42,603 nucleotides of DNA from a virus, in the IMG/VR virus record IMGVR_UViG_3300048574_000092, positions 1-42,603 of that record. One strand, given 5' to 3'. Within the stretch, counting starts at the first letter, position 1. Each line of letters begins with the position of its first letter. Below, one piece after another: positions 1,583 to 33,419 of the stretch. A program made the translations under genes and the position numbers. The notes below the pieces were generated by a model that was not told the origin of the DNA, did not search any database, and worked only from the letters and a program-made list of their open reading frames with translations.

Positions 1583-1731
1583 CGCTCCACCTCCCCCGCC
1601 GTAACGCGCAGCAATTTGCCGCCAACGCGGAACGCGCGCAACTTTCGTTCCCTGATAAGCGAATAGACGGCATCGCGGGAGCAGGCCCATCGGTCGGCGA
1701 CTTGCGCCACTGTGAACGGCTTCTCCGTCAT
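1453..1731 (-). CDS. xis: Excisionase-family / AlpA-like HTH DNA-binding protein
   Basis: FTVAQVADRWACSRDAVYSLIRERKLRAFRVGGKLLRVTAGEVERWE matches the excisionase-type winged-helix pattern. A strong SD (AAGGAG..GGGGAG) precedes ATG 1731. The tail overlaps int by 130 nt out of frame. Confidence 0.7.
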   Translation of the reverse strand: MTEKPFTVAQVADRWACSRDAVYSLIRERKLRAFRVGGKLLRVTAGEVERWESAGGNTQSGNTDLVNSTERRSSAGATKRGRTAEDLASSLK

Positions 1732-7500: not shown

Positions 7501-7839
7501 TCAACGAGGAACAACGGAACCGTCTAGCTTCTTTTTCCATTTCGACTTGCGGCCGCAGGGCATGGGATGCGCTGGTTTTCGTGCGCAGATGCGCCTCTCG
7601 AACCCCCGCCGCGTCTTGTCGATCTCAGGGCGGCGTTGGCGCGTCTTCGCAGCATGGCAACGCTTCCGCATGACGCGGCAATTCTCAAGCGTCGGTTCCC
7701 CGCCGATCGTGTCTTCGATGATATGATCGTACTCGGGGCCATCACCGGCAATGATCTTGACCCCGCAGCCGCACTCGCAGATGCCGCCGCTGCGCTGCCA
7801 GGCAGCGAGTTTCACCTTCTTCGGAAACTCCTTGCGCAT
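7501..7839 (-). CDS. HNH endonuclease
   Basis: A Cys cluster (CECGCG) is followed by EYDHIIEDTIGGEPTLENCRVMRKRCHAAKT (H-N-H pattern). ATG 7839 overlaps the upstream stop; GTG 7842 is an alternative start. Confidence 0.8.
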   Translation of the reverse strand: MRKEFPKKVKLAAWQRSGGICECGCGVKIIAGDGPEYDHIIEDTIGGEPTLENCRVMRKRCHAAKTRQRRPEIDKTRRGFERRICARKPAHPMPCGRKSKWKKKLDGSVVPR

Positions 7840-7994
7840 CACAGCCCTGCTTCCTCATTCACATTGACCGCAATCGTCTTCACGATCCTTGGTCTGATTT
7901 CAGAATCGTTCGGAGGCTCAACGGCTTTTGAAATCAGAACCGCAGCGACAACATAAATCAGGATCAGGAGCCAGAGGCCTACTGTGTCGGTCAT
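7839..7994 (-). CDS. 51-aa membrane peptide (below the ORF-track size cutoff)
   Basis: I translated MTDTVGLWLLILIYVVAAVLISKAVEPPNDSEIRPRIVKTIAVNVNEEAGL by hand. It shows ATGA overlap with the recT stop and TGATG overlap with the HNH start. Confidence 0.5.
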   Translation of the reverse strand: MTDTVGLWLLILIYVVAAVLISKAVEPPNDSEIRPRIVKTIAVNVNEEAGL

Positions 7995-10164: not shown

Positions 10165-10266
10165 CTAAAATCCCCCTGACACAAGAACGATAATCAGCGC
10201 TAGAAACCCAAATCCACTCGCGACGATTGCGAGGCCAAGAGCCTCAAGAAAGCGGCGGTCGATCAT
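10165..10266 (-). CDS. 33-aa hydrophobic peptide
   Basis: Hand translation gives MIDRRFLEALGLAIVASGFGFLALIIVLVSGGF. Its stop directly abuts the next ATG. Confidence 0.4.
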   Translation of the reverse strand: MIDRRFLEALGLAIVASGFGFLALIIVLVSGGF

Positions 10267-10267
10267 T

Positions 10268-10354
10268 TTATCCTGAGTAGTAGAGGGCCATTCCCATGAC
10301 ACCGATGGCCCAGAGCACGAGCAGTGTTATTCCGAGATCGAACTTTGAAAGCAT
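10268..10354 (-). CDS. 28-aa hydrophobic peptide
   Basis: Hand translation gives MLSKFDLGITLLVLWAIGVMGMALYYSG. Confidence 0.4.
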   Translation of the reverse strand: MLSKFDLGITLLVLWAIGVMGMALYYSG

Positions 10355-10373
10355 GACAGACTCCACATTGAAC

Positions 10374-10490
10374 TCAGCGACGGTTGATGAAGATCGCGAC
10401 AGCCCAACAGAACGCCATTGTGTGAGCGACCGTGGTGAGGATCGAGAAGCCAGGGTTCTGCCGGACGAATTCGAGGAAGTGTTCGAGCAT
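10374..10490 (-). CDS. 38-aa hydrophobic peptide
   Basis: Hand translation gives MLEHFLEFVRQNPGFSILTTVAHTMAFCWAVAIFINRR. It shows ATGA overlap with the upstream stop. Confidence 0.4.
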   Translation of the reverse strand: MLEHFLEFVRQNPGFSILTTVAHTMAFCWAVAIFINRR

Positions 10491-10900
10491 CACGCTCCCT
10501 GACAAATCAGACGGAGGTCTTCGCGGATTGCTTCAAAGCCATCGGCAATTGACGGAGAATTCTCGAACGATTGCTCAGCAATCGAAACGCTCCAGTCGTT
10601 CAGCTTGTCGGTGATCTCAGGCTCACAACCGGTTTCAATTGCCGTGGCAAGCTCCCGGGCGAGGTAGCTCTCGAAAACAAATGGGATGTGGTGACGAAGC
10701 GGAACTTTGAGATAGCGCGTGATCTTCTTTGGCATGCCGAGCGGCGCTGCCCGGTCTGTGACGTAAGCGTCGAGATAGAGCCCGACGACGGCACCGTCCT
10801 GATTGATGGACGCTGTGCCGGAGAACATTCCGACTTCGGCGCCGGCGATCTGAACGCCGACTTCCTCAAAGTCGAAATCGATAATTCCAGTGTCGCGCAT
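10490..10900 (-). CDS. Hypothetical protein, 136 aa; first gene of the leftward early operon
   Basis: ORF with good coding character, followed upstream by ~220 nt of non-coding leader. Confidence 0.65.
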   Translation of the reverse strand: MRDTGIIDFDFEEVGVQIAGAEVGMFSGTASINQDGAVVGLYLDAYVTDRAAPLGMPKKITRYLKVPLRHHIPFVFESYLARELATAIETGCEPEITDKLNDWSVSIAEQSFENSPSIADGFEAIREDLRLICQGA

Positions 10901-13888: not shown

Positions 13889-14851
13889 ATGACATCAACA
13901 GACGCAACACCGAACGCTGTCACCGAAGATAACGTCGGTGATTTGAATGGCGAAAACAAGACGCGGTGGTTCTCAACGTCCGTCGAAATCTTCGATCATC
14001 CGGTCTTGAATGTTGGCCCCTTCGACCGCCGCTCAGCTTGGCAATGGCTGATAGCCAATGCCGCTTGGAAGACAAAACGCGTCAATCACAAGGGCAAGAT
14101 GATCGATCTCGATCGCGGGCAGGTCATCATCGGCCGCGCATTCTTGGCCGAGACGTGGGGATGGTCGGAGCAAACCGTCAGAACCTTCATCAAAATTCTA
14201 GTCGCTGAGAACATGCTTGAACTCAACCAGAGTGGCGGTCACTTCGCGAACATCGCAACGATATGTAATTACGACAAATATCAATCGCGGCAACCAGAGC
14301 GTAACCAGTCAACCAACCAGAGCGTAACCAGTGTCCAACCAGTGTCCAACCAGACTCTTACAAGGAATACAAATACTACAACTACCCAAGTAGCTTCTTC
14401 CCTACCAGAACCCGCGCGCGATGACGCCACGCCACGCTGCGAGGATTTGAAAGTTTTTTACGATCGGCTTTACGACGCCGCCAGCGCCTGCCTCGACAAC
14501 CCTGCAAACTGCCAAGGCCTGATCAACACGATGATCCCGCAAACGTGGATCAACTCGGGCTGTGACCTCGAACTCGACATCCTGCCGGCGTTGCGCGCCA
14601 AGGCCGCGACGCACAAGGGGCGGCGGGTGTGGAGCTGGGATTATTTCACCAACGCCGTTGCTGACGCGCGTGTGAAGCGCCTAGCGGCATCCAAGCGCAT
14701 TGCGACGGCCACGGTTCCTTCCGGCGCCAAATCAGCCACCGGGCGAGCGCCAACAGCATCGCCTCGCCTGCTGCATCTCAACGACGAAAGCTGGAAAGAG
14801 CAGATCGCCAACGAGATGGTTGAACAGGGGCTCGCCAATGTCATCAACTAG
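13889..14851 (+). CDS. Replication initiator / replisome organiser (lambda O-like role, winged-helix N-terminal domain)
   Basis: ..AWQWLIANAAWKTKRVNHKGKMIDLDRGQVIIGRAFLAETWGWSEQTVRTFIKILVAENML.. is typical of phage replication-organiser winged-helix domains. The gene contains an iteron array followed by an AT-rich tract. Confidence 0.65.
   Translation: MTSTDATPNAVTEDNVGDLNGENKTRWFSTSVEIFDHPVLNVGPFDRRSAWQWLIANAAWKTKRVNHKGKMIDLDRGQVIIGRAFLAETWGWSEQTVRTFIKILVAENMLELNQSGGHFANIATICNYDKYQSRQPERNQSTNQSVTSVQPVSNQTLTRNTNTTTTQVASSLPEPARDDATPRCEDLKVFYDRLYDAASACLDNPANCQGLINTMIPQTWINSGCDLELDILPALRAKAATHKGRRVWSWDYFTNAVADARVKRLAASKRIATATVPSGAKSATGRAPTASPRLLHLNDESWKEQIANEMVEQGLANVIN
14292..14353. repeat. 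Iteron array (candidate ori): six AACCAG cores at 11-12 bp spacing
   Basis: AACCAG starts at 14292, 14303, 14315, 14326, 14337 and 14348. Larger units are AACCAGAGCGTAACCAGT x2 and GTCCAACCAG x2. The AT-rich cttacaaggaatacaaatactacaactac follows. Confidence 0.7.
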
Positions 14852-15687: not shown

Positions 15688-15899
15688 GCACAGCCACCAC
15701 GCGTGTCCTTGCTGAAGCTGCTGGAACTCCGCTGTGTGACTGCGTCGTGATCGGAGTGAAGCCAGACGGTTCTCTGCACATCGATTGGACTGGCTCAACT
15801 CTTGGAAGCCTCATCCTCTATCTCAGGCTTGCAGAACGAGAAGCGTTGAACGCGTGGGACGAAGGCGTGGATCTGCACAATAGGAGCAAGGCAGCGTGA
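15684..15899 (+). CDS. Hypothetical protein, 71 aa
   Basis: Start at MSTATTRVL, overlapping the upstream stop. Confidence 0.55.
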   Translation: MSTATTRVLAEAAGTPLCDCVVIGVKPDGSLHIDWTGSTLGSLILYLRLAEREALNAWDEGVDLHNRSKAA

Positions 15900-16576
15900 C
15901 TGCGTCCGCTCGCGGTTTATTCCGCGCCACAGGTAAGAAATCAAAGCCAGTCGCGGCGCGCATGCTCGACGGTTCGCTTGCGATTGTCGATGAACTTCAG
16001 CGGGAGCCGGATGAGTTCTATCCGACGCCGCCGGAGCCAATTCGAGCGCTTCTCTGCGCCGAGCTTGAGCGCTTGCGGGAATTCGAGAGCGTTTGGGACG
16101 CTAGCGCGGGCGACGGTGCGCTTGTTCGTGAAATCGAAGCCGTCGGACTCAAAGTTATCGGCTCCGACCTCGTTGATCGAGGGGCGGGTTTCCAGATCAA
16201 GAATTTCTATGATTTCAAAACGGCTCCGTCGAAATGCAGCGTGCAGAACCCGCCGTTCGCTGAATGCGGCTGGGGTAATGGTCGCGCCCGCTGGCTGAAG
16301 CATGCGCTCGAAACACTCGATCTCGACTACATGGCATTGCTGATGAATTGGGGATGGCCGGGCGCCGGCGGACTAGCGCCGTTCTGGGCCGCACACCCAC
16401 CAGCGCGTGTCTACCTCATGAGATGGAAAATCGATTTTACGGGGCAGGGAGCACCACCGATGCTCAACGCTTGGTTCGTCTGGGACAAATCTCACGAAGG
16501 CGAAACCGTTCTGCGCACACTCGATCGAAACAACGATGCGCGTCAGAGCAATCTATTTCATGAGGCTGCAGAATGA
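15896..16576 (+). CDS. Orphan DNA N6-adenine methyltransferase
   Basis: It has FYPTPP near the N-terminus, a SAM-binding-like VWDASAGDGAL, and the catalytic NPPF (..SVQNPPFAE..). No cognate nuclease is adjacent. The start is uncertain (GTG 15896 or ATG 15962). Confidence 0.75.
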   Translation: MTASARGLFRATGKKSKPVAARMLDGSLAIVDELQREPDEFYPTPPEPIRALLCAELERLREFESVWDASAGDGALVREIEAVGLKVIGSDLVDRGAGFQIKNFYDFKTAPSKCSVQNPPFAECGWGNGRARWLKHALETLDLDYMALLMNWGWPGAGGLAPFWAAHPPARVYLMRWKIDFTGQGAPPMLNAWFVWDKSHEGETVLRTLDRNNDARQSNLFHEAAE

Positions 16577-16710
16577 CCGGCAAAACCCTTCGCGGCTACC
16601 GCATAAAGAACGGCAAGGTTGAGAAGATATCCGGATACGGTCTCAACACATCTGCGAAGATCAAGCAGAAGAAGTCGAAGAAAACGAAACCGATAAAGAG
16701 GATGCCTTGA
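16573..16710 (+). CDS. 45-aa highly basic peptide (below the ORF-track cutoff)
   Basis: Hand translation gives MTGKTLRGYRIKNGKVEKISGYGLNTSAKIKQKKSKKTKPIKRMP. It shows ATGA overlap with the methyltransferase stop. Confidence 0.4.
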   Translation: MTGKTLRGYRIKNGKVEKISGYGLNTSAKIKQKKSKKTKPIKRMP

Positions 16711-17261
16711 CCTACTTCGCCATCCGCACTCATCCACAACGCGAGTTTCTGCTCGCCGGCCGGTATGACGAGCACGGGGAATGGCGTCCCGGCGTGCTCG
16801 AGAAAAAGGGCTACGACCAAGTATTCTGCCCCACGGAAACGAAGTTCCGGAAGACGATCAAGAAGGGACGCCGCGTCTCCATCCCCGTGCTCTATCCCAT
16901 GTTCACGGGCTATATCTTCGTAGGTGGCCGGTTCTCATGGCTTGAGCTGATGGCTGAGAACTACATCACCGCCGCTGTTGGTTTTCCAGATGAGTTTGGC
17001 AGGCGCAGGCCTGCACCGATCTCTGAATCTGAAATGGCGAAGCTCCGAGAGATGTCAGGAGGGCTTATCCCGCACCGACGGTCGGTGAACCCACATCGTG
17101 CGCTCCGCGTTGGTGAGATGGCAGAGATCAGCATCGGGCCTTTCGCAGGACAGATCGTCGAGATCAAAGGCATTCAGGGCCGCAAGGCAAAGATCTTTGT
17201 CAGCCTGTTCGGACACGCTACACTGACGGAGATACCGATTGGAGATTTGGAGGCCGCGTGA
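16707..17261 (+). CDS. NusG/RfaH-like transcription antitermination factor (NGN + KOW)
   Basis: YFAIRTHPQRE...PVLYPMFTGYIFV is NGN-like. VGEMAEISIGPFAGQIVEIKGIQGRKAKIFVSLFGHATLTEIPIGDLE is KOW-like. The ORF begins with TTG. Confidence 0.75.
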   Translation: MTYFAIRTHPQREFLLAGRYDEHGEWRPGVLEKKGYDQVFCPTETKFRKTIKKGRRVSIPVLYPMFTGYIFVGGRFSWLELMAENYITAAVGFPDEFGRRRPAPISESEMAKLREMSGGLIPHRRSVNPHRALRVGEMAEISIGPFAGQIVEIKGIQGRKAKIFVSLFGHATLTEIPIGDLEAA

Positions 17262-17578
17262 ATCCTGACAAGCCACCCGAGAAATACGCAGCACGTCTGG
17301 CGGCAGATCAGGAACGATTTCGAAAGCAGCAGAACGCCCGCTCAAAAGATCTCGGCGTCACGCTCAACTGGGTAGTGAGATGGGATAGGGCGGAGGGTGT
17401 TCGGCAGTGGACGTGGGATGACCGGAGAAACACAAAGACGCCAGTCTATGCGCTATGGGCCGCTGAGGTGAAAGACAACGGCGACATCGTCGTGACGCGA
17501 ACGGAATACGGGTATCTGCCGGCAGCAAATGAAAAGGGCGACCCCGAAGAGCCGCCCCCTGATTTGCCTAAGCCCTGA
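17258..17578 (+). CDS. Hypothetical protein, 106 aa (GTG start); last gene of the rightward early operon
   Basis: The ORF is coupled to the upstream stop and converges on the gene at 17568..18584 with an 11-nt overlap. Confidence 0.5.
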   Translation: MNPDKPPEKYAARLAADQERFRKQQNARSKDLGVTLNWVVRWDRAEGVRQWTWDDRRNTKTPVYALWAAEVKDNGDIVVTRTEYGYLPAANEKGDPEEPPPDLPKP

Positions 17579-18584
17579 GAGCTATTCTCAATTGCTTGCC
17601 GACTTTCGTCAGTTCCAGATGCTCGTCGATCTCTTGCCGCAACCGGCTTGCCGGGCCTGGATCGATGCCAAGCAGGTCCGCTAGTTCCTGATGACTTGAG
17701 ACGCTTCCACCGTTGCGTTCGATTGCCTTCCAAACGCGGTGCTCGTGCAGGTCGACAACACCCTTGCCGATCTCAGGCTTGCGACGCTTGCCTTTCGGAG
17801 GTTCGGGCGGTTCCGGCAACTGAAACTCAACAGGGAAAGACGTTTGCCGGTCGTCGGCAACTGAAGGGCAATCGTTTGCAGCAACTAAAACCGGACGCTT
17901 GCCCTGACGGAACGCGAAGCCGAGCGAGACGATCGAGCCGATTTCGAAGAACAGGCACTTAGCAAACGGTATCAGCAACAAAAGAGCGGCAACGATCTGA
18001 TCCTTGCTTGCCGGGATGCGGAACAGGACGCCGATGTCAGCCATTGCCGCAGCTTGCGCATTGACGGGCTTCTGCGGCCCGAGGGCGGCGATCTCGCCTT
18101 CAAGCTGCTTGATCACCACGCCGATGTCTTTCGCGTTCGTCTTCCAGTCCTTGCAGCGCTGGCCGCAACGCTGGCCGGTCATTTCCCGGTCAGCGGCACG
18201 GTCGGCATAGTCGCGCCGGGCTCGTGCCGCTTTCAGGTCTTCAGTCTTATCGGCAATCTTCGTGTTGTTGTCTTCGACCGAGAGAGTGGTGGTTCCTGCG
18301 GTTTCGACCTGCCGGCCAACGGAGGAATAAACGACGAGGCCGGTTCCCGACAGAAACAGCACGAGGAAGCCGAGAGTTGCGAACAGATGGCGGGCGCGCG
18401 CGGCGTCGACCATGAGGTGCCCGGCTGCGATCGTTCCGAAGACGGTCAGGATCGTGAGCCATTGCGAAGCTTGCCAGTCCTGGGGCGATGTAAGATCAGA
18501 CCCGAGGAGGATGGTGAGGCCGCCGGCTGCGAATGCGCAGCCAGCGACACCGGCCAGAAAACGGCCGCGAATGGAGAGCATCAT
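17568..18584 (-). CDS. Multi-TM coiled-coil protein with C-terminal HTH-like domain, 338 aa
   Basis: It has three N-terminal hydrophobic helices and a charged coiled coil containing CGQRC. A further hydrophobic region (IVAALLLLIPFAKCLFFEIGSIVSLGFAF) follows. The C-terminus reads ..SSHQELADLLGIDPGPASRLRQEI.. . Confidence 0.7.
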   Translation of the reverse strand: MMLSIRGRFLAGVAGCAFAAGGLTILLGSDLTSPQDWQASQWLTILTVFGTIAAGHLMVDAARARHLFATLGFLVLFLSGTGLVVYSSVGRQVETAGTTTLSVEDNNTKIADKTEDLKAARARRDYADRAADREMTGQRCGQRCKDWKTNAKDIGVVIKQLEGEIAALGPQKPVNAQAAAMADIGVLFRIPASKDQIVAALLLLIPFAKCLFFEIGSIVSLGFAFRQGKRPVLVAANDCPSVADDRQTSFPVEFQLPEPPEPPKGKRRKPEIGKGVVDLHEHRVWKAIERNGGSVSSHQELADLLGIDPGPASRLRQEIDEHLELTKVGKQLRIALRA

Positions 18585-18697
18585 TGTCCGATGCTTTCAC
18601 GGATCGAGGCTTCAACGCCTGAGATCAGGCAGAAGAGACCCAGGATAAGCACCGGAGCGGCGGTGACGAGTAACGGGATCAGAGGTAAGTAGGTCAT
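18581..18697 (-). CDS. 38-aa membrane peptide coupled to the 338-aa protein
   Basis: Hand translation gives MTYLPLIPLLVTAAPVLILGLFCLISGVEASIRESIGQ. Its stop overlaps the downstream ATG, and AAGGA lies upstream. Confidence 0.45.
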   Translation of the reverse strand: MTYLPLIPLLVTAAPVLILGLFCLISGVEASIRESIGQ

Positions 18698-18808
18698 GGG
18701 TTCAAGTCCTTGTTGCTAAGGAGTTGGATCAAGAGGGTCGTCGCGGGTGCAACCGCTTCGGCCCTCGATTGTGATGTAGCACGTCGTATCACAGTGTGCA
18801 ATATATAT

Positions 18809-18837
18809 TTGACGCACGATGTAAGACGGTGTATCAC
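18809..18837 (+). promoter_or_regulatory. Candidate promoter TTGACG-N17-TATCAC for the RHH operon
   Basis: The -10 ends 7 nt before ATG 18844, so the mRNA may be leaderless. The -10 overlaps a repeated GTATCAC motif. Confidence 0.45.
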
Positions 18838-18843
18838 CGCGGC

Positions 18844-18993
18844 ATGGCAGACACACCGATTACGCCCGTTCGAATCCCCCTCGATATCCGGGGGCAACTC
18901 GAGATCATCGCGAAGGCCGAGAATAGAAGCATCAGCAACGTGGTTGTGACTTTGCTGATGGAGGCCCTAGCAGCGCGGAGGAAGCGCAAATGA
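18844..18993 (+). CDS. Ribbon-helix-helix (Arc/CopG-like) DNA-binding protein, 49 aa
   Basis: MADTPITPVRIPLDIRGQLEIIAKAENRSISNVVVTLLMEALAARRKRK fits a beta-strand followed by two helices, the RHH pattern. Confidence 0.7.
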   Translation: MADTPITPVRIPLDIRGQLEIIAKAENRSISNVVVTLLMEALAARRKRK

Positions 18994-19364
18994 GCGACCT
19001 GAATGCCTGCCGCATATGCGGTTTCAAACCGAAGCGCTTAACGCCCAGTGCAGTAGGTGTATTCAAAGTGGTCTGCGAATGCGGAAACGAGGAAAGCTTT
19101 CTACAGGCGCCGAGTGCACTACATGGTCGGTCGCTTGCTGGTTTTGCAGACGGTGACAGGGAAGTCACGGAACGGTGGAACCGAAATAACCGGGTCTCTC
19201 TCGAACCCCAAACGGACATGGTCATTACTCTTGCAGACCCGAACGGGCGCGTCGCTGGTTCGACCGTAACGATAAACTATGGAGATCGGTCGCTAACGTT
19301 TAGGTGTCGGCGGCAGCAGAAGACAGACGGGAACTTCCATCACATCTGGGAAATCGAGCCGTAG
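18990..19364 (+). CDS. Protein with Lar-like (restriction alleviation family) zinc-ribbon N-terminal domain, 124 aa
   Basis: CRICGFKPKRL...FKVVCECGNEES...DREVTERWNRNN matches the Lar-family pattern (C-x2-C ... C-x-C ... WNxR). It shows ATGA coupling to the RHH gene. Confidence 0.55.
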   Translation: MSDLNACRICGFKPKRLTPSAVGVFKVVCECGNEESFLQAPSALHGRSLAGFADGDREVTERWNRNNRVSLEPQTDMVITLADPNGRVAGSTVTINYGDRSLTFRCRRQQKTDGNFHHIWEIEP

Positions 19365-19378
19365 GGGAGAAAGCGGAA

Positions 19379-19573
19379 ATGACCACGAGTGTCCCGACGA
19401 CAATTCCCGTTCCGGAGAACGTGATTCTAGACTTATGGCTGTATGGTAGCGCCATGGTAATCACTGGCTTGGACGGCCAGGAGCATATTCCTTGGAGCGA
19501 CTGGCATGCGCGCACGGATAAGCCGCCCATGCCGCTACCAGCTTGTTGCTGTAAAGACTCTCCCGGAAACTGA
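19379..19573 (+). CDS. Hypothetical protein, 64 aa
   Basis: Start at MTTSVPTT, preceded by GGGGAGAAAG. Confidence 0.45.
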   Translation: MTTSVPTTIPVPENVILDLWLYGSAMVITGLDGQEHIPWSDWHARTDKPPMPLPACCCKDSPGN

Positions 19574-19881
19574 CGGAAGCTAGAAGCAAGTTCCGGTATT
19601 GACGTCAGCGACCAAATCATCGAACTACAAATCAACCCATAGTGTGCGTCGGGCTTTTTAACGCCAAGTATTGCATAGGCCAGAGCCCGATCTGGTGTCG
19701 GCACGTGCCGGACCGCAAGCCGTTATTGTCCCCAAAATCCTGAAATTCCCGTCGCCGTGACTTGTCTCCTGACCCGGGATTGTCACGACACATGCTCTGG
19801 CACCCGATCCAACGCCATGGATGCGCGGCGGCGGGGATTCTGTTTTTGCAAATTCACCTCCTATCTCAGGAGCCCCCCGAA

Positions 19882-21042
19882 ATGAGCACCATTCCTGCGC
19901 CGGCCCGCCGGGGCCTGATCCCGGCTGTCTCCGGCCTCTTTTCCGCGGTCTCGCGCCCGGCCTCCCGGATCAATCTTGATCGCATCGCCATTGGCCTCGT
20001 CTTCTTCGCTGGCGTCGTCACGATCCTGAAGAAGAACGGCGTCGACGTTCCGAGCTTCATGGTGCTGTTCGGCTGCTCGCTCGGCATCGCCGGTCTGCTC
20101 TACGAGATGAGTGCGTCCCGCTCGATGATGCGTGCGTTCTGGGAAGCCAAGCCGTTCTCGATGTTCTGCAACCTCACCATCTGGGTTGCTGCCTTCTCGT
20201 TCTCGATCTTCAACTGGATCGGCGCCGCTGCTGAGGGGCAGGCGGAGAAGACGAACATTCAGAAGGCAGCCTTCGTGCACTCCGCGGATGCGCGCACGCG
20301 TCTCGACATGGCTCAGGATGCCTTGAAGAAAGCCCGCAACGCCGCCCAGGAAAAGCACAATGCCGCTTGGGAGACGATCCCCGTTGTCGACGGTCAGAAG
20401 ATCACCGACCGGGGTCAGGCGGAAGCCTTGATTGCGAAGATCAAATCGAACACTCGGTACTGGAACCTGACGAACGAGTGCCAGACGACCAAAGGCCCGC
20501 AGACCCGGAAATACTGCGCCGATTACAACGACGCGAAGGCCGCTCTTTCGTGGGCTGATACCCACCCCGCTCTGATCGAGGCGGCAAACGCCGCGGATCA
20601 GGACGTGAAGCGTCTCGAGCAGGAAGTCGTCAGCGCCCGCAGCGAAGCATCGAGCACGAAGGTTGTGACCTCGGAAGATCGCGCCGACCTGTTCATGCTG
20701 ACGGACTGGGGCGGCATGAGCGAGTCCCGCGCGCAGCAGCTGACGGGCCTGATCTCTGTTCTCGTCATTTCGGTGTTCATCTCGTTCGGATCGATGCGCG
20801 ATGAAGCGGCACGCCTGACGGCGGAAGGTCCGCGCCGGAAATGGTCGTTCCTGTCGCGCACCTATCGTTGGGCTTATCGCAAGGTCTGGGGCCAGGAACC
20901 CGACAACACGACCTACGTGACGAACTACCTTGATCCCCGCGGAGCGGAAGCTCTGGCGGCAGTGATGAAGGACCGAGAGCGCGTCGCGCAGGCAGCAAGA
21001 GCCGCCCAGAACCGCCTCTATCCGCAGGAAGCCCTCGCATGA
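19882..21042 (+). CDS. Multi-TM coiled-coil protein, 386 aa (same architecture as 17568..18584)
   Basis: Start at MSTIPAP, preceded by AGGAG. It has three hydrophobic helices, a long coiled coil with the Cys pair CQTTKGPQTRKYC, a further TM (LISVLVISVFISFGSM) and a basic tail. Confidence 0.7.
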   Translation: MSTIPAPARRGLIPAVSGLFSAVSRPASRINLDRIAIGLVFFAGVVTILKKNGVDVPSFMVLFGCSLGIAGLLYEMSASRSMMRAFWEAKPFSMFCNLTIWVAAFSFSIFNWIGAAAEGQAEKTNIQKAAFVHSADARTRLDMAQDALKKARNAAQEKHNAAWETIPVVDGQKITDRGQAEALIAKIKSNTRYWNLTNECQTTKGPQTRKYCADYNDAKAALSWADTHPALIEAANAADQDVKRLEQEVVSARSEASSTKVVTSEDRADLFMLTDWGGMSESRAQQLTGLISVLVISVFISFGSMRDEAARLTAEGPRRKWSFLSRTYRWAYRKVWGQEPDNTTYVTNYLDPRGAEALAAVMKDRERVAQAARAAQNRLYPQEALA

Positions 21043-21206
21043 ACATTCAGAACATGGACTTCATGCAGATCGTCCACTTGGCCGGGCGCGTCGTGTGCGC
21101 GCTCGGCTTGGCGATGTTCTTTTTCAACATCAATCTCGGCATTCAGGCGTTTGCTCATCCAGGGATTGAGGTCGCTGCAGCTGGCTGGATTATGAAAAGC
21201 CTCTGA
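21039..21206 (+). CDS. 55-aa membrane peptide (below the ORF-track cutoff)
   Basis: Hand translation gives MNIQNMDFMQIVHLAGRVVCALGLAMFFFNINLGIQAFAHPGIEVAAAGWIMKSL. It is coupled at both ends. Confidence 0.45.
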   Translation: MNIQNMDFMQIVHLAGRVVCALGLAMFFFNINLGIQAFAHPGIEVAAAGWIMKSL

Positions 21207-22402
21207 TGGCGATCTCGCTCAAGCATAAGTTCGAGAGCACAGTCCCAGACCAGCCCAAGCCGGGACTTGTTCGCCCTTCGGACTGGAATGACGAGCATGA
21301 TCTGACCCTGTCGTCGGGGTATCTGGTAGGACGAACGTCACCCGGTGACGGACCAGCGGAAAGCATACCGGTAAGCAGTTTCGCGACGGCGGATCAGGGA
21401 GCGAAAGCCGATAGCGCGCTCCAGTCGTTTGATGTTGCGGCTGCCGTCCACGCAGCGTCTTCGAAATCGACACCCGTTGATGCGGATGAGTTCGCGCTGA
21501 TCGACAGTGCGGCTTCGTTCGTCCTCAAAAAACTGACGTGGGCGAACTTTAAAGCAGCGGTTAAGACGTATTTTGACACGCTCTATCAGGCAAAATTCGC
21601 GTTTACGCCGCGCGAGGTTCTGACCGCAAACCGCACCTACTATATCCGATCCGACGGCAACGACGCCAACACGGGTCTGGCGAACAATTCAGGCGGAGCG
21701 TTCAAGACAACACAAAAGGCAATGGACGTTGTCGCGGCTCTAGATACCAGCATTTACAACGTAACTATTCAGTGTGGCGACACGGGACCTTTTACAGGCT
21801 GCGTTTTAAAGGCTCCGCTCGGATCCGGAACCGTCATCATCAACGGCGATACTGCCAATCCTTCCAACTACACCTTCACGAAAAACGGCGGATCGTCCTA
21901 TATCTTTGACGGGCAATCGGCCGTCGGGAAATTTCAGATTTCGGGCGTGCATCCGCATGACGCGACCGCCGCCTATCACATCATTTCGGGAGTGGCCGGA
22001 AACATCATAGTCGCGAACAACAACGACTATGGCGACTGCATCAATTACCTGATGGCGGCCAAATACGGCGGCCAATTGCAGATCAGCGGCGCGAACAACA
22101 AAATGAGTTGTTCGACGACGATTACCGCGCCGTTCCTTTGTGACACCAACTCGAATCTGATTGCAGTAAGCGCCAGCACCTTTACGTGGCTGCGCAATAT
22201 TGCCTATTCGTACTTCGTGCTCGCCCGTTGGGGCGGCGTTCTAAATCTCGCAAACCTCACCTGCGCATTGGCGGGATTTACGGCGACAGGGTCACGCTAC
22301 AACTCAGACTCAAACGCGGTCGTCATTGTTGGAGGCGGTGGCGCGAGTTTCTTCCCAGGTTCGACTTCTGGGAGCACGTCGAATGGCGGCTTGTATTCGT
22401 AA
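21206..22402 (+). CDS. Tail fibre / tailspike with probable right-handed beta-helix C-terminal domain
   Basis: The N-terminus (..LVRPSDWNDEHDL..GYLVGRTSPGDGPAESI) resembles conserved tail-fibre N-termini. The C-terminus is rich in G/N/T/S short repeats (..NVTIQCGDTG..TVIINGDTAN..), as in pectate-lyase-fold spikes. Confidence 0.6.
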   Translation: MAISLKHKFESTVPDQPKPGLVRPSDWNDEHDLTLSSGYLVGRTSPGDGPAESIPVSSFATADQGAKADSALQSFDVAAAVHAASSKSTPVDADEFALIDSAASFVLKKLTWANFKAAVKTYFDTLYQAKFAFTPREVLTANRTYYIRSDGNDANTGLANNSGGAFKTTQKAMDVVAALDTSIYNVTIQCGDTGPFTGCVLKAPLGSGTVIINGDTANPSNYTFTKNGGSSYIFDGQSAVGKFQISGVHPHDATAAYHIISGVAGNIIVANNNDYGDCINYLMAAKYGGQLQISGANNKMSCSTTITAPFLCDTNSNLIAVSASTFTWLRNIAYSYFVLARWGGVLNLANLTCALAGFTATGSRYNSDSNAVVIVGGGGASFFPGSTSGSTSNGGLYS

Positions 22403-22411
22403 GGGCAACGC

Positions 22412-22732
22412 ATGATCGAATACACCCCTCATGATTGGCATTGGATTGTCGGTGGTGATCCGAACCGAGCGTGGTCGAGCGCAGCCAGATCTTACGTCAC
22501 GGATTACCCAAGTGATCGCGTCTCGCGCATTGCGAATGAGGTCGAGCTTTACGACGTTCTGGCAAAGAGAGGGCTCGCATCACGTGCACCACAAGGACCA
22601 TTCACAGTCGGTGACGTTAGGGCAGCGTTCGCCAATATCGATGCCGTCGCTACTGGAGCCGCGAGCGATGCAGATGCGCTAGCGGTCATCGCCGAAGAGA
22701 TCGGCATGACGCTGCCGCCGCTCGCTGACTAG
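22412..22732 (+). CDS. Hypothetical protein, 106 aa (possible fibre accessory)
   Basis: ORF directly after the fibre gene. Confidence 0.5.
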   Translation: MIEYTPHDWHWIVGGDPNRAWSSAARSYVTDYPSDRVSRIANEVELYDVLAKRGLASRAPQGPFTVGDVRAAFANIDAVATGAASDADALAVIAEEIGMTLPPLAD

Positions 22733-22828: not shown

Positions 22829-22882
22829 ATTCTTGCTACATACCCTAGCTGTAATTTGAAGTTTCGTTTGTCGGGGGTGGAA

Positions 22883-23530
22883 ATGACGGCTTTTGCGCTT
22901 GTAGGGGCAGGTGGATTTGCACGTGAGGTAATGGATTGGGGGGCGCCTTTTGTCCGCACCACACTAGGATCTTCGGTAGACATCTGCTTTGTGCAGGAAA
23001 CACCTTCCCCCGAAGAGCGGATCAACGGTGAAAACTTTTGTAGTCTTGATGGGTTTCTATCGCGCAATGATCGCAAGTATTTCGCAATAGCAATTGCAAA
23101 TGCCAATGTGCGCCGGCGCCTCGCTGAGAAGATAGAACAGCAAGCTGAACCGCTAACGCTGATCGCACCCAGTGCGATGGTTGGACAGCACAATAGCATC
23201 GCCCCTGGCGCGATCATCTGCCCGTTCGCGTGCATCACATCTAACGCTAAAATCGGGCGCCATTTTCACTGCAACATCTATTCCTATGTCGCGCACGACT
23301 GCGTAATTGGAGACTTCGTGACGTTTGCCCCACGAGTCGCCTGCAACGGAAACGTTAACATCGCCGACGAAGCCTATCTGGGGACCGGCGCAAGCATTCG
23401 TCAGGGCATTCCCGGAAAGCCAACGCAGATAGGCCGCGGCGCGGTGGTCGGAATGCAAGCCAATGTGCTTAAGACAGTTCCTGAGTTGCAGACCGTCATT
23501 GGCAATCCAGCAGTATCGCTGGATCGGTAA
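22883..23530 (+). CDS. NeuD/PglD-like sugar O-/N-acyltransferase (left-handed beta-helix hexapeptide repeats)
   Basis: The N-terminus has a Rossmann-like LVGAGGFAREV. The C-terminus has hexapeptide repeats (..IAPGAIICPFACITSNAKIGRHFHCNIYSYVAHDCVIGDFVTFAPRVACNGNVNIADEAYLGTGASI..). The stretch is visibly AT-richer. Confidence 0.75.
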   Translation: MTAFALVGAGGFAREVMDWGAPFVRTTLGSSVDICFVQETPSPEERINGENFCSLDGFLSRNDRKYFAIAIANANVRRRLAEKIEQQAEPLTLIAPSAMVGQHNSIAPGAIICPFACITSNAKIGRHFHCNIYSYVAHDCVIGDFVTFAPRVACNGNVNIADEAYLGTGASIRQGIPGKPTQIGRGAVVGMQANVLKTVPELQTVIGNPAVSLDR

Positions 23531-23745: not shown

Positions 23746-24084
23746 ATGCTCGCGCCATCGAAATACTTCGTAGGGGCCGCAGTGAGCCTATCCGCTTCGT
23801 TCACCGATTCCGATGTCACGCCGTCCGATCCGGATACAGTCACTCTCAAGCTCCGGTCTCCAAGCTGCCAGTCGTTCACCTACGTCTACGGCACTGATGC
23901 CAACGTCACGAGGCAATCGGCCGGCAACTATTCGGCAATCGTTACGCCCAATTGCGCAGGTCGATGGTTCACGCGTTGGGAAGGCACAGACCCCGACGGC
24001 AACGTGATTGCGAGAGAGGGCAACTTCAACGTCCAGGCATCTCGCTTTGTGGACCATGATTGTTGCTGCAGGGATTACAGATGA
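23746..24084 (+). CDS. Hypothetical protein, 112 aa (beta-rich, Ig-like impression)
   Basis: ORF whose stop overlaps the terS ATG. Confidence 0.5.
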   Translation: MLAPSKYFVGAAVSLSASFTDSDVTPSDPDTVTLKLRSPSCQSFTYVYGTDANVTRQSAGNYSAIVTPNCAGRWFTRWEGTDPDGNVIAREGNFNVQASRFVDHDCCCRDYR

Positions 24085-24524
24085 CACCGAAGCAGGAAGC
24101 CTTTGCCCGCGCCTATGTCGAAACAGGGAATGCGAGCGAGGCTTATCGCCGTTCCTACAATGCCGGGAAGATGAAACCCGAAGCAATAAAGGTGAACGCC
24201 TGTAAGCTTTTGAAAGACGCTAACGTCGCACTAACGGTGGAGCGTCTGCAACTCAAACACCAGAAGCGCCACGATGTAACGGTCGATTCCATAACGGAGA
24301 TGCTGAAGGCAGATCGAGAGCTGGCCCGGCGGAATGCTCAATCCGGAGCTGCAGTCACGGCAGCGATGGGCCTCGCAAAGCTTCACGGACTCATCGTCGA
24401 AAAGCGCGAAGTCACACACAAGCAGGGTGTCGAAGACCTGAGCGATGCTGAACTTGGAAATATCGCCCGCGGAAGCGGCAACGGAGCTGCTGAAGCGGCG
24501 CCACGCCCGCCGCGGGCTAATTGA
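24081..24524 (+). CDS. terS: Terminase small subunit
   Basis: MTPKQEAFARAYVETGNASEAYRRSYNAGKMKPEAIKVNACKLLKDANV matches the Terminase_2 N-terminal pattern. Confidence 0.85.
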   Translation: MTPKQEAFARAYVETGNASEAYRRSYNAGKMKPEAIKVNACKLLKDANVALTVERLQLKHQKRHDVTVDSITEMLKADRELARRNAQSGAAVTAAMGLAKLHGLIVEKREVTHKQGVEDLSDAELGNIARGSGNGAAEAAPRPPRAN

Positions 24525-25896
24525 ATTCAGCGAATACACGAACCGGGCCTATCGGCCTGCTGCGCACCATCGATTGATTGCTGAAAAGCTCGAGGCAATC
24601 GAAGACGGCAAGATTGATCGGCTGATGATCAACATGCCGCCGCGGCACGGCAAATCGGAACTCGGTTCAAGGCGCTTTCCCGCTTGGTTCCTGGGGCGCA
24701 ACCCCGAAGCAACCATCATGTCGGCCTCGTACAACCTGGACAAGGCAGAGGAATTCGGTGGCGAAGTCCGAGATATCGTCAAGAGCGCGGCCTATCGAAA
24801 TCTCTTTCCGAACGTCGAGTTGAAAGAAGACACGAGAGCCAAGGGCTTTTGGCGCACGTCTCAGGGTGGATTCTACATCTCGGCTGGTGTCGGCACGGCA
24901 CTGACGGGGCGTGGCACCGTTGGCCCGATCGTCCTGATCGATGATCCTCTGAAGGATAGAGAGGAAGCCGACAGCGAGCGCACCCGTGAAAAGGTGAAGC
25001 AATGGTATTCGTCAGTCGTTCTCTCGCGCTTTCCGCGCGCCGTGATCGTGGTGCAGACCCGATGGCACGAAGACGACCTGACAGGTTGGTTGCTGGAAGA
25101 GCAGGCGAGAGGCGGCGACACGTGGGATATTTTGGAACTGCCCGCGATCAGCCCGGACGGGCAGGCGCTCTGGCCGGAGTTCTATCCGCTCGATCAGTTG
25201 GAGCGCATCAAACGCTCAACGCTGCCACGAGACTGGTCGGCTCTCTATCAGCAGCGCCCAGCACCAGACGAAGGCGCGTATTTCAAGCGGGATTGGTTCC
25301 GCTGGTACGAGAACAGGCCGAAGCAACTAAGGATCTATGGAGCGTCTGACTATGCCGTCACGGAAGGCGACGGCGACTACACGGTTCATATCGTGGTCGG
25401 CATCGATCCGGACGACAATCTGTACGTCCTCGATCTATGGCGGGGGCAAACATCATCGGATGCATGGATTGGAGCGTGGCTCGATCTCGTCCGGATGCAC
25501 AAGCCTCTGATGTGGGTCGAAGAGCAGGGCCAGATCATCAAGTCGATTGGGCCGTTTCTCGAAAAGCGCATGCGAGAGGAACGCGTTTACTGCCGGCGCG
25601 AACAGGTGGCATCCGCTGCCGATAAGCCGACCCGGTCACGGTCGATCCAGGCGCGCACGTCGATGGGGCGCGTCTACCTGCCATCGAAAGCGCCTTGGCT
25701 CGCAGACTTCACGCAAGAGCTGCTCGTGTTTCCCGCGGGCAAGCATGACGACCAGGTTGACGCCTTCGGCCTCATTGGCCGGATGCTGGACGAACTGATC
25801 CCGGCTTCGAAGCCGAAAGAGCCGACAGCATCTCAAGCCAGCGGCTACAAGCGATTGAACGAGGATAGGAATAGCGACGGATGGAAGTCTCGATGA
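24445..25896 (+). CDS. terL: Terminase large subunit
   Basis: It has a Walker A-like MPPRHGKSE, then VLIDDPLKD and VVQTRWHEDDLTGWL (ATPase motifs), and a C-terminal nuclease region ..HDDQVDAFG.. . It overlaps terS by 80 nt. Confidence 0.9.
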   Translation: MLNLEISPAEAATELLKRRHARRGLIEFSEYTNRAYRPAAHHRLIAEKLEAIEDGKIDRLMINMPPRHGKSELGSRRFPAWFLGRNPEATIMSASYNLDKAEEFGGEVRDIVKSAAYRNLFPNVELKEDTRAKGFWRTSQGGFYISAGVGTALTGRGTVGPIVLIDDPLKDREEADSERTREKVKQWYSSVVLSRFPRAVIVVQTRWHEDDLTGWLLEEQARGGDTWDILELPAISPDGQALWPEFYPLDQLERIKRSTLPRDWSALYQQRPAPDEGAYFKRDWFRWYENRPKQLRIYGASDYAVTEGDGDYTVHIVVGIDPDDNLYVLDLWRGQTSSDAWIGAWLDLVRMHKPLMWVEEQGQIIKSIGPFLEKRMREERVYCRREQVASAADKPTRSRSIQARTSMGRVYLPSKAPWLADFTQELLVFPAGKHDDQVDAFGLIGRMLDELIPASKPKEPTASQASGYKRLNEDRNSDGWKSR

Positions 25897-27932
25897 CTCC
25901 AAGCACCGCCCTTGTTCCGGCAGAGGCGCAAGCGTTCACGCCCGACCTTGGCCGATACCGAAAATGGTTCACAGCCTACGAGACAAACAAGCAGTTTGAA
26001 ATCAACGAGCAGCTTGTCCATGAGGGCTATTACAACAGTACGGGGCACTGGACAGAGGAAGAAGCCCGGAAGCTGAGGAAGCGCGGTCAGGCGCCGATTT
26101 TCGATAATCGCATTGCGCGCAAGATTGATTTCCTCGTGGGTGTCGAGCAGCGCATGCGCCGTGACCCCAAAGGCTATCCGCGCACTCCGAATGACGAGCA
26201 GTCGGCAGACGTTGCGACGGCAGGTATGCGGTATGCCTGCGACATCAACCGTTGGGAGTTTGTAGGTTCGGCCGGCACGCATGACGGGCTGGTGCGAGGG
26301 ATTGGTGTCTGCTTCGTCGGCATCAAGCAGGGCATGACTGGGCCGGATCCAGAGATCAAATCCGTCCAGAGCGATCGCTTCTTCTATGACCCTCGCTCGA
26401 AACGTCCAGACTTCGAAGATGCGCGCTACATGGGCCTGCATCTTTGGATGGACATCGACGATGCCAAGGAGAAATGGCCGGACAAGGCGCAACAGCTCCA
26501 GCAGATCATCGACAGTGTCGCCGCCGGCGGCATCCTCTCCCGTGTCGATCAGAACCAGGAGACAGCGTGGGCTGAGTTCGAAAGCCGCCGCGTCCGCGTC
26601 GTCGAGTTCTGGGAGAAGACACCGCGCGGCTGGACGTACTGCTACTTCGTTGGCGAAGTGATGCTCGACGGCGGAGTTTCGCCGTATCTCGATGATGAAG
26701 GAAAGCCGGATTGCCCTTACGCGGCATGGTCGCCTTATGTGGACGAGAGAGGCAACCGTTACGGCCCGATTCGCAGCATGAAGCCGATGCAGGACGAGGC
26801 GAACCATCGCCGGTCCAAGGCTCTGCACCTGTTTACGACCAAGCAGCTTCACTTCCGCCGTGGCACGCTCGAAGACGTCGACAAGACGCGATCGGAACTC
26901 GCGAAGCCCGACGGCATGATCGAGCACGACGGAGATTGGGGTAAGGAGGTCGGCATTGTCGACCACTCGATGGACGTTGCCGGGCAGTTGCAATTGCTCG
27001 AGCAGGCGCAGGCCTCACTCGAAAACCTCGGGCCCAACCCTGGCCTGATCGGCAAGGGTGGCGGCGTCGCGGATCAGTCGGGCCGAGCGATCCTCGCTCA
27101 ACGTGACTCGGGCATGACTGAGTTGTCGCCCGTGTTCGAGCGCAACAGGGATTGGAAGCTCCGCGTCTATCGCAAGCTCTGGTCGCGTATCAAACAGTCC
27201 TGGACCGCAGAGAAGTGGATCAGGATCACGGACGAGAACGACGCGCCGCAGTTCATCGGGCTCAACCAGTATAACATCGACCCGCAGACGGGGCAGGCTG
27301 TGAGCCAGAACGTCGTCGCCATGATCGATGTCGACATCATCATGGAGGAAGGCCCAGACGTCATCACGATGAACGAGGAATTGCTGCAGACGCTTTCGCA
27401 GCTTGGTCCGAACGCCGTCCCGCCGAAAGTGCTGATCGAACTCTCGAACGCTCCGAACAAGGAACGCCTGTTCAAGATGATCGACGAGGCGACACAGCCA
27501 GACCCGGTTGTGCAGCAGATGCAGCAGCGCATGGCGCGGCTTGAACAGCTGGTTCAGGCATCGACGGTGGACAAGAACGTGGCGCAGAGCGAACTCTACC
27601 GGGCGCAAGCGGCCGCGGCGTTGCTGACGGCATCGACGCCACAGCAGCAGAAACCGATGATCGACAAAATGGGCAACGCAATCCCGCAAGCTCCTGCGCC
27701 AATGCCGAATCTCGGTATCGCGCAGCAAGCGTTGCAGATGTTCCCGTTCCACTACGCTCAGCCGACAATCGAGCAATACGCGGAGAACGCGTCACCTCCG
27801 CAGCCGCCGGATGATCCGGACGACCAGCAGCAACCAGGGCAACCGTTGCCGCAACAGAACGCAGCCTTACCGCCTCCGTCAGGAATGCCGGGCGGATTAC
27901 CCGTCAATCCACAACTCGCAGGGATGCAGTAA
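25893..27932 (+). CDS. Portal protein
   Basis: It is a ~680-aa ORF directly after terL, with a Q/P-rich C-terminal tail. ATG 25893 overlaps the terL stop (ATGA); ATG 25881 is an alternative start. Confidence 0.8.
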   Translation: MTPSTALVPAEAQAFTPDLGRYRKWFTAYETNKQFEINEQLVHEGYYNSTGHWTEEEARKLRKRGQAPIFDNRIARKIDFLVGVEQRMRRDPKGYPRTPNDEQSADVATAGMRYACDINRWEFVGSAGTHDGLVRGIGVCFVGIKQGMTGPDPEIKSVQSDRFFYDPRSKRPDFEDARYMGLHLWMDIDDAKEKWPDKAQQLQQIIDSVAAGGILSRVDQNQETAWAEFESRRVRVVEFWEKTPRGWTYCYFVGEVMLDGGVSPYLDDEGKPDCPYAAWSPYVDERGNRYGPIRSMKPMQDEANHRRSKALHLFTTKQLHFRRGTLEDVDKTRSELAKPDGMIEHDGDWGKEVGIVDHSMDVAGQLQLLEQAQASLENLGPNPGLIGKGGGVADQSGRAILAQRDSGMTELSPVFERNRDWKLRVYRKLWSRIKQSWTAEKWIRITDENDAPQFIGLNQYNIDPQTGQAVSQNVVAMIDVDIIMEEGPDVITMNEELLQTLSQLGPNAVPPKVLIELSNAPNKERLFKMIDEATQPDPVVQQMQQRMARLEQLVQASTVDKNVAQSELYRAQAAAALLTASTPQQQKPMIDKMGNAIPQAPAPMPNLGIAQQALQMFPFHYAQPTIEQYAENASPPQPPDDPDDQQQPGQPLPQQNAALPPPSGMPGGLPVNPQLAGMQ

Positions 27933-32970: not shown

Positions 32971-33419
32971 CGAATACGCCGCTCGCGCCGCCGCCACCAC
33001 GGGCCTTGCTCGATCCGAACGGAAACGTCAGTGACCGGTTCTATCAGTGGCTTGGGAGTCTGCAGAAGGGGATTTCTGGGGCGTTCTCGGGCATTGGAGA
33101 AATCAACGCGCAGCAGGAAGCCATCGACTTCACCATCGAGAGCCCTGACAACCAGGACTATCTGTTCGAGATCGATTGCCCGTTCGGATACAAGATCACT
33201 CAGGTCGACAGCCAATGCCGGTCTGGAACCTGCATCGCAACGACGAAGATCGGCGTGACGGCATTAGGAGGCGGTGCGAACTCGGTTTCCACCTCGCTTC
33301 AGACGAAGACGCACACTTCGGCCAACGTCATTGCAGCGGCAGGAACATCGGTCGTTACGATCTCATCCAATAGCAGTTGTGCTGGGCTTCGCTTGACGTT
33401 CTGGATTACCCGCACGTGA
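32967..33419 (+). CDS. Tail-associated hypothetical protein, 150 aa
   Basis: ORF coupled within the late operon. Confidence 0.5.
   Translation: MTNTPLAPPPPRALLDPNGNVSDRFYQWLGSLQKGISGAFSGIGEINAQQEAIDFTIESPDNQDYLFEIDCPFGYKITQVDSQCRSGTCIATTKIGVTALGGGANSVSTSLQTKTHTSANVIAAAGTSVVTISSNSSCAGLRLTFWITRT

Follow-up and report, generated by a model that had tools for sequence, protein, structure and literature searches.

A tentative tethered regulator and a tentative late envelope unit on homologous membrane modules of a temperate phage

What do two large membrane proteins of common plan, encoded divergently between the early and the virion genes of a temperate phage, do for that phage, and do they do it together? 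The question is raised by a block of genes in the virus record IMGVR_UViG_3300048574_000092, analysed here over its whole length of 42,603 nt (the window), which is a complete-looking temperate phage genome. The block encodes leftward a 38-aa peptide (a) and a 338-aa protein (A), and rightward, behind a small regulatory cassette, a 386-aa protein (B) and a 55-aa peptide (b). A sequence-only reading had taken it for one candidate exclusion or envelope-sensing system with a protein pair at its centre. All the open reading frames (ORFs), overlaps and gaps described in that reading were found in place when the sequence was re-read (Table 1). The explanation preferred here, held tentatively and at less than even confidence, is that the block consists of two independent units on one previously unannotated inner-membrane module and is not one system. 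A and a may form a membrane-tethered regulator in the style of ToxR/ToxS, and B and b may form a late envelope unit whose likeliest role is lysis timing; this assignment is likewise provisional. The function of both membrane proteins probably concerns regulation or lysis at the cell envelope.

The plan ascribed to both large proteins, three transmembrane (TM) helices, a Cys-bearing coiled-coil hairpin and a fourth TM helix, was borne out by AlphaFold2 (AF2) models and by hydropathy scans, which gave the same TM plan throughout the superfamily. The model of B, computed from the superfamily alignment of 132 diverse relatives, has a predicted local distance difference test score (pLDDT) of 91.7; TM3 runs on as an unbroken helix to residue 163 and is followed by the tip (164-205), a return helix (206-258), a short helix, TM4 and the basic tail, with the Cys pair C200-x11-C212 around the hairpin tip. 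In the AF2 model of A a B-like plan is followed by a disordered linker (227-277) and a winged helix (283-336). Distant paralogy of the two proteins, first hinted at by a short motif, was examined by profile comparison. Pairwise BLASTP of A against B gave nothing, and hhalign with narrow alignments gave 63.6 % (E 6.7e-5, score 42). With broad alignments, in which the A family was extended with divergent members from viral contigs and B was represented by its 132 sequences, the value was 97.6 % (E 4e-12, score 89). This alignment spans TM1 to TM4 in 213 collinear columns and brings the Cys regions into register; reversed and block-shuffled column controls gave 4-43 %, scores of 25-36 and at most 79 columns. 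When 6885 six-frame ORFs were searched with a hidden Markov model (HMM) of the B superfamily, members of the A family were furthermore matched at E 1e-5 to 1e-7 and unrelated ORFs not at all. Because of the broad hhalign result relative to its controls and the HMM cross-matches, the membrane modules of A and B are judged, on profile evidence, to be homologous. The motif that had given the hint, C-[KA]-D-[WY]..A-K, occurs in A and B of the window, yet the B family as a whole does not conserve it.

In family-wide counts Lys and Arg accumulate at the N-terminus, within loop 2 and behind TM4. Exactly two ectodomain Cys residues are found in 130 of the 132 B-superfamily sequences, spaced as C-x11-C in 78 and as C-x3-C in 45, and the C-x3-C of A is present in 49/49 A-family sequences at the predicted periplasmic tip. 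Because of topology rules together with these K+R and Cys counts the hairpin is placed in the periplasm, and the module is predicted to be N-in/C-in with a putative disulfide at the tip. A third variant of the membrane module was seen in a proteobacterial metagenome-assembled genome (L007, 12991-14046, (-)), where it lies downstream of a B-type gene and has a C-x6-C tip and a different helix-turn-helix (HTH)-like tail (...RTTCWRRLKAA).

The module defines an unannotated phage superfamily. More than 300 homologs of A were recovered in a word-indexed search; no Pfam match was found among them, and a further search seeded with the A alignment returned the same close relatives and added nothing. 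For B the word-indexed search gave 31 homologs and an exhaustive profile search gave 176 clusters at 50 % identity, all of about 330-400 aa, so that the B-type part of the superfamily counts at least this number of clusters. Neither the large proteins of the block nor the 132 B relatives had a match over threshold in Pfam, PHROGs, NCBIfam or PADLOC. In PADLOC-DB 2.0 the sole match of A was to JetA (0.012), in the coiled coil, B had none, and two isolated matches at about 8e-4 among the 132 relatives were to ZacA and ZorA3. The only library family with recurrent weak matches was DUF4407 (PF14362), itself an uncharacterised family; A matched it with E 0.055 (13.2 bits relative to a gathering score of 31.3) and 4 of the 132 B-superfamily members did so at E<0.01 (best 1.4e-4), all under the gathering score, and B itself had no match. 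Foldseek of the B model gave generic coiled-coil matches alone against PDB (TM-score <=0.3) and uncharacterised phage proteins alone against BFVD. B was also considered as a Wzz/PCP-like or a MotA/ExbB/ZorA-like protein, and structural or profile support was found for neither. The sequence-only reading held up in that no match to a known virion, lysis or defence component was found for either large protein. In 50,697 GenBank phage records there was no tblastn match to A or B and no near-identical DNA for 17000-22500, the 5.5 kb round the block.

That A and B act as a pair or a single system is contradicted by their assortment among relatives. Compared with the window proteins, contig 3300048574_000110 has a NusG-paralog at 98 %, B at 100 % and the large terminase TerL at 97 %, but A at 59 % and a at 51 %, and its DNA has no similarity to the window across 18458-19733. 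B at 97 % identity was also found with terminases of 37 % identity. B-b occurs without A in L043 and with a soluble winged-helix protein at the place of A in L005, and among close relatives a, the membrane module and the winged helix have been shuffled independently. Co-evolution was found neither between a and A nor between A and B. Thus A, a, the ribbon-helix-helix (RHH) cassette and B-b recombine independently of one another (Mantel r~0.1); the divergent arrangement of A and B is conserved among relatives.

The C-terminal HTH-like tail ascribed to A is substantiated by the winged-helix fold of the AF2 model (three helices plus a beta-hairpin wing), by local Foldseek matches and by weak profile matches. 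When the A model was compared to PDB by Foldseek the winged helix alone matched, locally, to ArsR/MarR-type domains at an rmsd (root-mean-square deviation) of ~2.5 A, and a search of PDB sequences gave the GntR-type 4ham (E 0.006). All recovered A-type proteins keep the membrane module and carry a winged-helix-like C-terminal domain, which is of at least three non-homologous types; their best Pfam matches, all sub-threshold, are MarR_2 (1.5e-4), GntR (1.4e-3) and HTH_24 (0.038), the last being that of the window A. In L005 and L006 the A locus instead encodes a 133-aa soluble protein with a winged helix, related by homology to the type-3 domain, and a homolog of a still lies in front of it. 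This soluble version suggests that the winged-helix function is what the A locus needs. Peptide a has a conserved Glu at the end of its TM helix and a C-terminal IGQ/K. The coupling of a TM mini-peptide to each large protein, proposed earlier, is confirmed by the ATGA overlaps; the arrangement however differs, as a lies upstream of A, and b lies downstream of B and in some relatives upstream.

ToxR-like regulators combine a flexible linker and a functionally important periplasmic Cys pair with a small membrane partner in the operon (PMC7496328, PMC7017273, PMC5430869, PMC8407435). Like ToxR/ToxS, TcpP/TcpH, CadC and PsaE/PsaF, A is predicted to be a tethered winged helix on a linker with a periplasmic Cys pair and a coupled membrane peptide, a. 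On this likeness a-A would be transcribed leftward from its own promoter, and A would be a one-component transmembrane regulator in the manner of ToxR/ToxS, TcpP/TcpH or CadC, its winged helix hanging beneath the membrane on a flexible linker of ~50 aa. The state of the hairpin, be it oligomerisation, the redox state of its two Cys or a contact made with a partner in the envelope, would set the activity of the DNA-binding domain, and the co-translated mini-protein a would be the membrane partner. The membrane-tethered sensor or regulator that had been put forward for both proteins jointly thus fits the anatomy of A, with its predicted extracytoplasmic hairpin and cytoplasmic winged-helix tail, and does not fit A and B acting as a pair. 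The likeness has clear limits. The winged helix of A is C-terminal and MarR/GntR/ArsR-like, whereas that of ToxR-like proteins is N-terminal and OmpR-like, and no match to Trans_reg_C (the OmpR-type winged helix) was found in A in the Pfam search. A has four TM helices with the hairpin between TM3 and TM4, and ToxR-like proteins have one; its periplasmic part is a helical hairpin and not an alpha/beta domain; its partner is a 38-aa peptide encoded upstream; and A is phage-borne.

As to its regulatory setting, A is divergent from an RHH/HTH gene on the far side of the operator repeats and has the late leader described below as a neighbour. Two 20-bp repeats (18773-18792 and 18818-18837) have no further copy in the window, where 0.15 sites would be expected by chance. 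Two sigma-70-like promoters, assigned by eye, stand back to back here, and the -10-like hexamer of each is overlapped by one of the repeats. The operator repeats co-vary with the first rightward regulator and not with the winged-helix subtype of A; therefore A is probably not the regulator of the divergent promoter pair, and this role was rejected as unsupported. The late leader was likewise rejected as a target of the winged helix, there being no co-variation. The first gene to the right encodes, in every relative, a small protein of RHH or HTH type that ends in a short, basic stretch of K/R (mostly G-R/K-KRK); in the window it is the 49-aa protein, with an Arc-like match (phrog_3431, 2.6e-8) and Pfam scores under cut-off (RHH_5 23.5 bits, cut-off 26; Arc 17.5, cut-off 20.4). 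The 5' untranslated region (UTR) of the a-A mRNA is kept in 10 relatives, and for 6/7 of its predicted pairs at least one sequence has a two-sided change preserving the pairing. In one of its hairpins (18708-18721) CCTT is paired with the AAGG of the ribosome-binding site, which suggests, from the conserved pairing, that a-A may be under translational control.

B follows the 64-aa ORF of the cassette across a non-coding gap of 308 bp and is preceded by the late leader, which has a G+C closing stem of 10 bp and a fold energy of -47.5 kcal/mol (z -3.1). The leader is 87-98 % conserved in L008, L009, L010, L011, L013 and L023 despite unrelated upstream DNA, and DNA similarity to relatives picks up again ~150 bp before the ATG of B. 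It moves as a unit and generally with B; in L011 a ~0.9-kb insertion with a 274-aa gene parts the two, and in L005 a different, equally strong hairpin with a U-tract stands at the leader position. Upstream of the block lies in all relatives the NusG-paralog, which closes the early-right operon. It matches phrog_6386, an antiterminator family, and in NCBIfam UpxY (1e-10) and LoaP (4e-5), both under cut-off, and is probably the late-gene antiterminator of this phage clade in place of lambda Q. The leader could be a terminator and/or a loading site for it. As B is the first gene behind the terminator-like leader and lies downstream of the NusG-paralog, the layout is that of an antiterminated late operon. 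The order NusG-paralog, leader, B and b (in either order) and terminase recurs with P22-type, Terminase_3-type and SU10-type virion modules, and in the SU10-type case A is absent. Adjacency to the fibre gene is not conserved, B-b being directly followed by terminase genes in relatives. By its synteny B belongs to the core late genes, behind a presumably antiterminated leader, and is no sporadic moron. Peptide b belongs to a family of 53-55 aa that always adjoins B, on either side, and has one clear TM domain (TMD), no charged tail and the conserved motif ..RP..L.G..LI..GL.KFFG.N.P..G.GLE.A.AGWL.K.I.

B-b, the first cistron pair of the late operon, would then be expressed only once the NusG-paralog lets RNA polymerase through the leader, and would act in the envelope late in infection, most likely in holin/antiholin-like timing of lysis. 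In lambda and P22 the corresponding slot is occupied by the lysis cassette, so the statement that the block has no counterpart in the P22/lambda plan does not stand. Lysis timing is considered likeliest because of this slot and because the late operon offers no other holin candidate. The putative lysis cassette of the window has a lysozyme family protein with C-terminal TM segments and a spanin-like pair, with no holin gene alongside; a comparative search for holins beside relatives of the lysozyme gene yielded two truncated close relatives only. The unassigned TM proteins of the late operon are B, b and a 229-aa two-TM ORF among the tail/ejection genes (33377-34066). A multigene lysis system requires a holin with at least one TMD (PMC12894885). 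Set against the holin traits of at least one TMD, late expression and a charged cytoplasmic C-terminus, B has 4 TMDs, a basic variable tail and a place at the head of the presumably late-expressed operon behind the leader. At 386 aa, N-in/C-in and with 4 TMDs it however lies outside holin classes I-III, which cover roughly 60-220 aa and three topologies (PMC12894885). A and B were also considered as i-spanins and rejected, as the hairpins return to the membrane, a and b are without a lipobox and the spanin-like pair sits at 40660-41209.

The nearest functional analogy is the pair T/RI of phage T4, T being a class III holin, in which likewise a late inner-membrane protein with a large periplasmic domain has a small partner (the late timing of B-b being presumed). 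The periplasmic domain of T4 T is disulfide-bonded. T has one TM helix and 218 aa, B has four and 386 aa, and there is no similarity between them in sequence or fold. T nevertheless documents that a holin can have a large periplasmic domain, which is bound there by the antiholin RI (PMC11413866, PMC8385771), and T/RI ties the timing of lysis to periplasmic events (PMC11413866, PMC8385771, PMC12894885). Neither A nor B is a member of the family to which it is likened, ToxR-like regulators and holins respectively; defining features of each family were tested and found absent.

Several observations weigh against these two assignments. For A, its DNA target was not found, and neither the operators of the control region nor the late leader co-vary with winged-helix subtype; all winged-helix family matches are under curated thresholds, and the AF2 model is of moderate confidence (pLDDT 68). 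Mantel tests among a, the membrane module and the winged helix gave r~0.1 and p~0.2. No known holin comes near the size of B, with its 386 aa and 4 TM helices; B also does not adjoin the lysozyme gene, and b is without the charged C-terminus typical of holins. The lysozyme annotation itself is a JGI name only, with no match in Pfam, NCBIfam, PHROG or PDB. Finally, the TM helices are the best conserved segments of both A and B and have invariant polar residues, which hints at a membrane-core function outside the model.

If A is a regulator, phages would possess a transmembrane transcription factor that is polytopic and tethered C-terminally, and through it a prophage could directly sense the condition of the cell envelope. 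Should B-b control lysis, the range of holin/antiholin architectures would be wider and lysis without a recognisable holin would be explained. A bolder version, which we regard as improbable, has A as an envelope sensor of the ejection conduit, of redox or of membrane potential, signalling to its DNA-binding domain for a lysogeny or late-gene decision, and B-b as the first of a new class, either of large holins or of sensors for lysis inhibition; the two would make up a new superfamily that couples the periplasm to transcription and lysis timing.

The alternative that survives best, though unlikely, is superinfection exclusion. The hairpins of A in the lysogen and of B during lytic growth would intercept the conduit formed by ejection proteins when a P22-like phage enters, as has been proposed for P22 SieA; the winged helix of A would, with no greater likelihood, autoregulate its gene or bind incoming DNA. 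Both are inner-membrane proteins whose hairpin is predicted to reach ~7 nm into the periplasmic space, phages that are near-identical elsewhere differ strongly in their A allele, as would be expected of a specificity determinant, and neither protein matches any other known function. The region resembles that of P22 immI, with a small putative RHH regulator at back-to-back promoters, a nearby inner-membrane protein gene and a downstream tail-fibre gene. SieA has 162-164 aa, 3 TM helices and the motif FxRYPxEAxxFNK (PMC10883804); this motif is absent from A and B, which also differ in size, TM number and plan, and no PADLOC model was matched. The parallel drawn earlier with P22 sieA-mnt-arc-ant-gene 9 therefore holds for position alone, and even there the block opens the late operon instead of closing it, and in relatives the terminase genes take the place of the fibre gene behind B-b. 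Exclusion is further opposed by the occurrence of B-b as a core, syntenic late unit in three phage lineages, by the soluble protein at the place of A in L005, which cannot work at the envelope, and by a conservation that is highest in the TM helices with an ectodomain that is not hypervariable; it would also leave the phage without a holin.

Still less likely, A could bind phage DNA non-specifically and hold it at the inner membrane while it is replicated, packaged or segregated. Phage phi29 has such a membrane anchor in p16.7, in which one N-terminal TM helix is combined with a coiled coil and a DNA-binding domain. A joins its TM helices and coiled coil to a predicted DNA-binding domain through a long linker, and the failure to find a co-varying operator is compatible with non-specific binding. 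To our knowledge p16.7 has no periplasmic hairpin or Cys pair; its host is Gram-positive and it has no sequence relationship to A. Anchoring is also hard to reconcile with relatives in which A is absent or soluble and all else is kept, with the position of A apart from the replication genes and divergently transcribed under RHH-type control, and with a putatively disulfide-stapled periplasmic hairpin, which an anchor would not need. Least of all, A and B could be unrelated multi-TM coiled-coil proteins of similar composition in a block of unrelated morons, as the empty BLASTP and a narrow hhalign score little over the block-shuffled controls would allow, a chance resemblance largely refuted by the broad hhalign score and its column count relative to the controls, the HMM cross-matches without false positives, the two-Cys tip common to both with C-x3-C and C-x11-C each occurring within the B superfamily, and the conserved divergent arrangement.

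Table 1. Features of the window, with position, strand and remarks.
Feature	Position	Strand	Remarks
Integrase	521-1690	(-)	
DnaD-like replication gene	13889-14851		
Methyltransferase	15896-16576		
NusG-paralog	16707-17261	(+)	Pfam NusG 1.2e-7; phrog_6386 3.7e-14
A, 338 aa	17568-18584	(-)	TM1-3, hairpin with C140-x3-C144, TM4, linker, predicted winged helix
a, 38 aa	18581-18697	(-)	single-pass membrane peptide; ATGA overlap with A, upstream of A
Divergent control region, 146 bp	18698-18843		two 20-bp repeats
5' UTR of a-A mRNA	18708-18766	(-)	hairpins 18733-18766 (5') and 18708-18721
Putative Arc/Mnt-like RHH protein, 49 aa	18844-18993	(+)	ends RRKRK
124-aa protein	18990-19364	(+)	N-terminal CxxC...CxC zinc-ribbon-like motif; part of variable 'moron' slot
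64-aa ORF	19379-19573	(+)	variable slot; called as gene in 3 contigs
Structured late leader	19733-19853	(+)	three-way junction closed by CCCGUCGCCG/CGGCGGCGGG, then U-tract; terminator-like
B, 386 aa	19882-21042	(+)	TM1-3, ~7-nm hairpin (predicted), TM4, basic poorly conserved tail; first late-operon gene
b, 55 aa	21039-21206	(+)	membrane peptide; ATGA overlap with B; TGATG overlap with 398-aa fibre-like gene
398-aa fibre-like gene			start overlaps b via TGATG
Small and large terminase genes	24060-25896		
683-aa ORF in portal position	25881-27932		then head and tail genes
Putative lysis cassette	39815-41209	(+)	318-aa 'lysozyme family protein' and overlapping spanin-like pair
i-spanin-like gene	40660-41025	(+)	
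Lipoprotein gene	40937-41209	(+)	lipobox LIHGC

The sequence of peptide b is exactly that of WP_013214196.1 from Hyphomicrobium denitrificans and a prophage of H. methylovorum holds close relatives of A, and therefore the host is taken to be a Hyphomicrobium-like alphaproteobacterium. The module accordingly has a conserved and central position in a temperate-phage clade of Hyphomicrobium-like bacteria, and the H. denitrificans prophage with the exact b match offers a tractable host in which both functional ideas are testable. The search for related loci in genome contigs gave one locus. The counterparts of the window virion genes in relatives match P22-type portal and coat families. No known RNA family of Rfam was found in the window.

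The 124-aa gene of the cassette had been labelled Lar-like. This label finds no Pfam support even at E<=10: the full-length protein gave no Lar match at E<=0.1, nor did its N-terminal 74 aa at E<=10, and no other family matched. CxxC...CxC and WNRNN motifs are readable in it by eye, and the gene is missing from relatives whose slot carries other genes. No family match was found for the 64-aa ORF. Relatives carry unrelated cargo between the RHH/HTH gene and the late leader, namely HNH/AP2-like genes and the 274-aa gene (L008 6943-7662; L002 7074-7517; L011 7141-7965), and this slot behaves as a moron insertion site.

A PglD-like hexapeptide-repeat acetyltransferase is encoded between the fibre-like genes and the terminase (22856-23530, (+)) and is possibly a gene for modification of surface polysaccharide, that is, for lysogenic conversion. 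Beside the presumed immunity region there are tiny ORFs of 32-51 aa with one strong TM helix each (10165-10505 (-) and 7839-7994 (-)), which could be small membrane peptides or chance ORFs. A 427-aa protein without family match is encoded at 41211-42494 (+); it consists of two tandem repeats of ~145 aa which are 49 % identical and each of which terminates in ALKRGTV(S/T)SPLTGETL.

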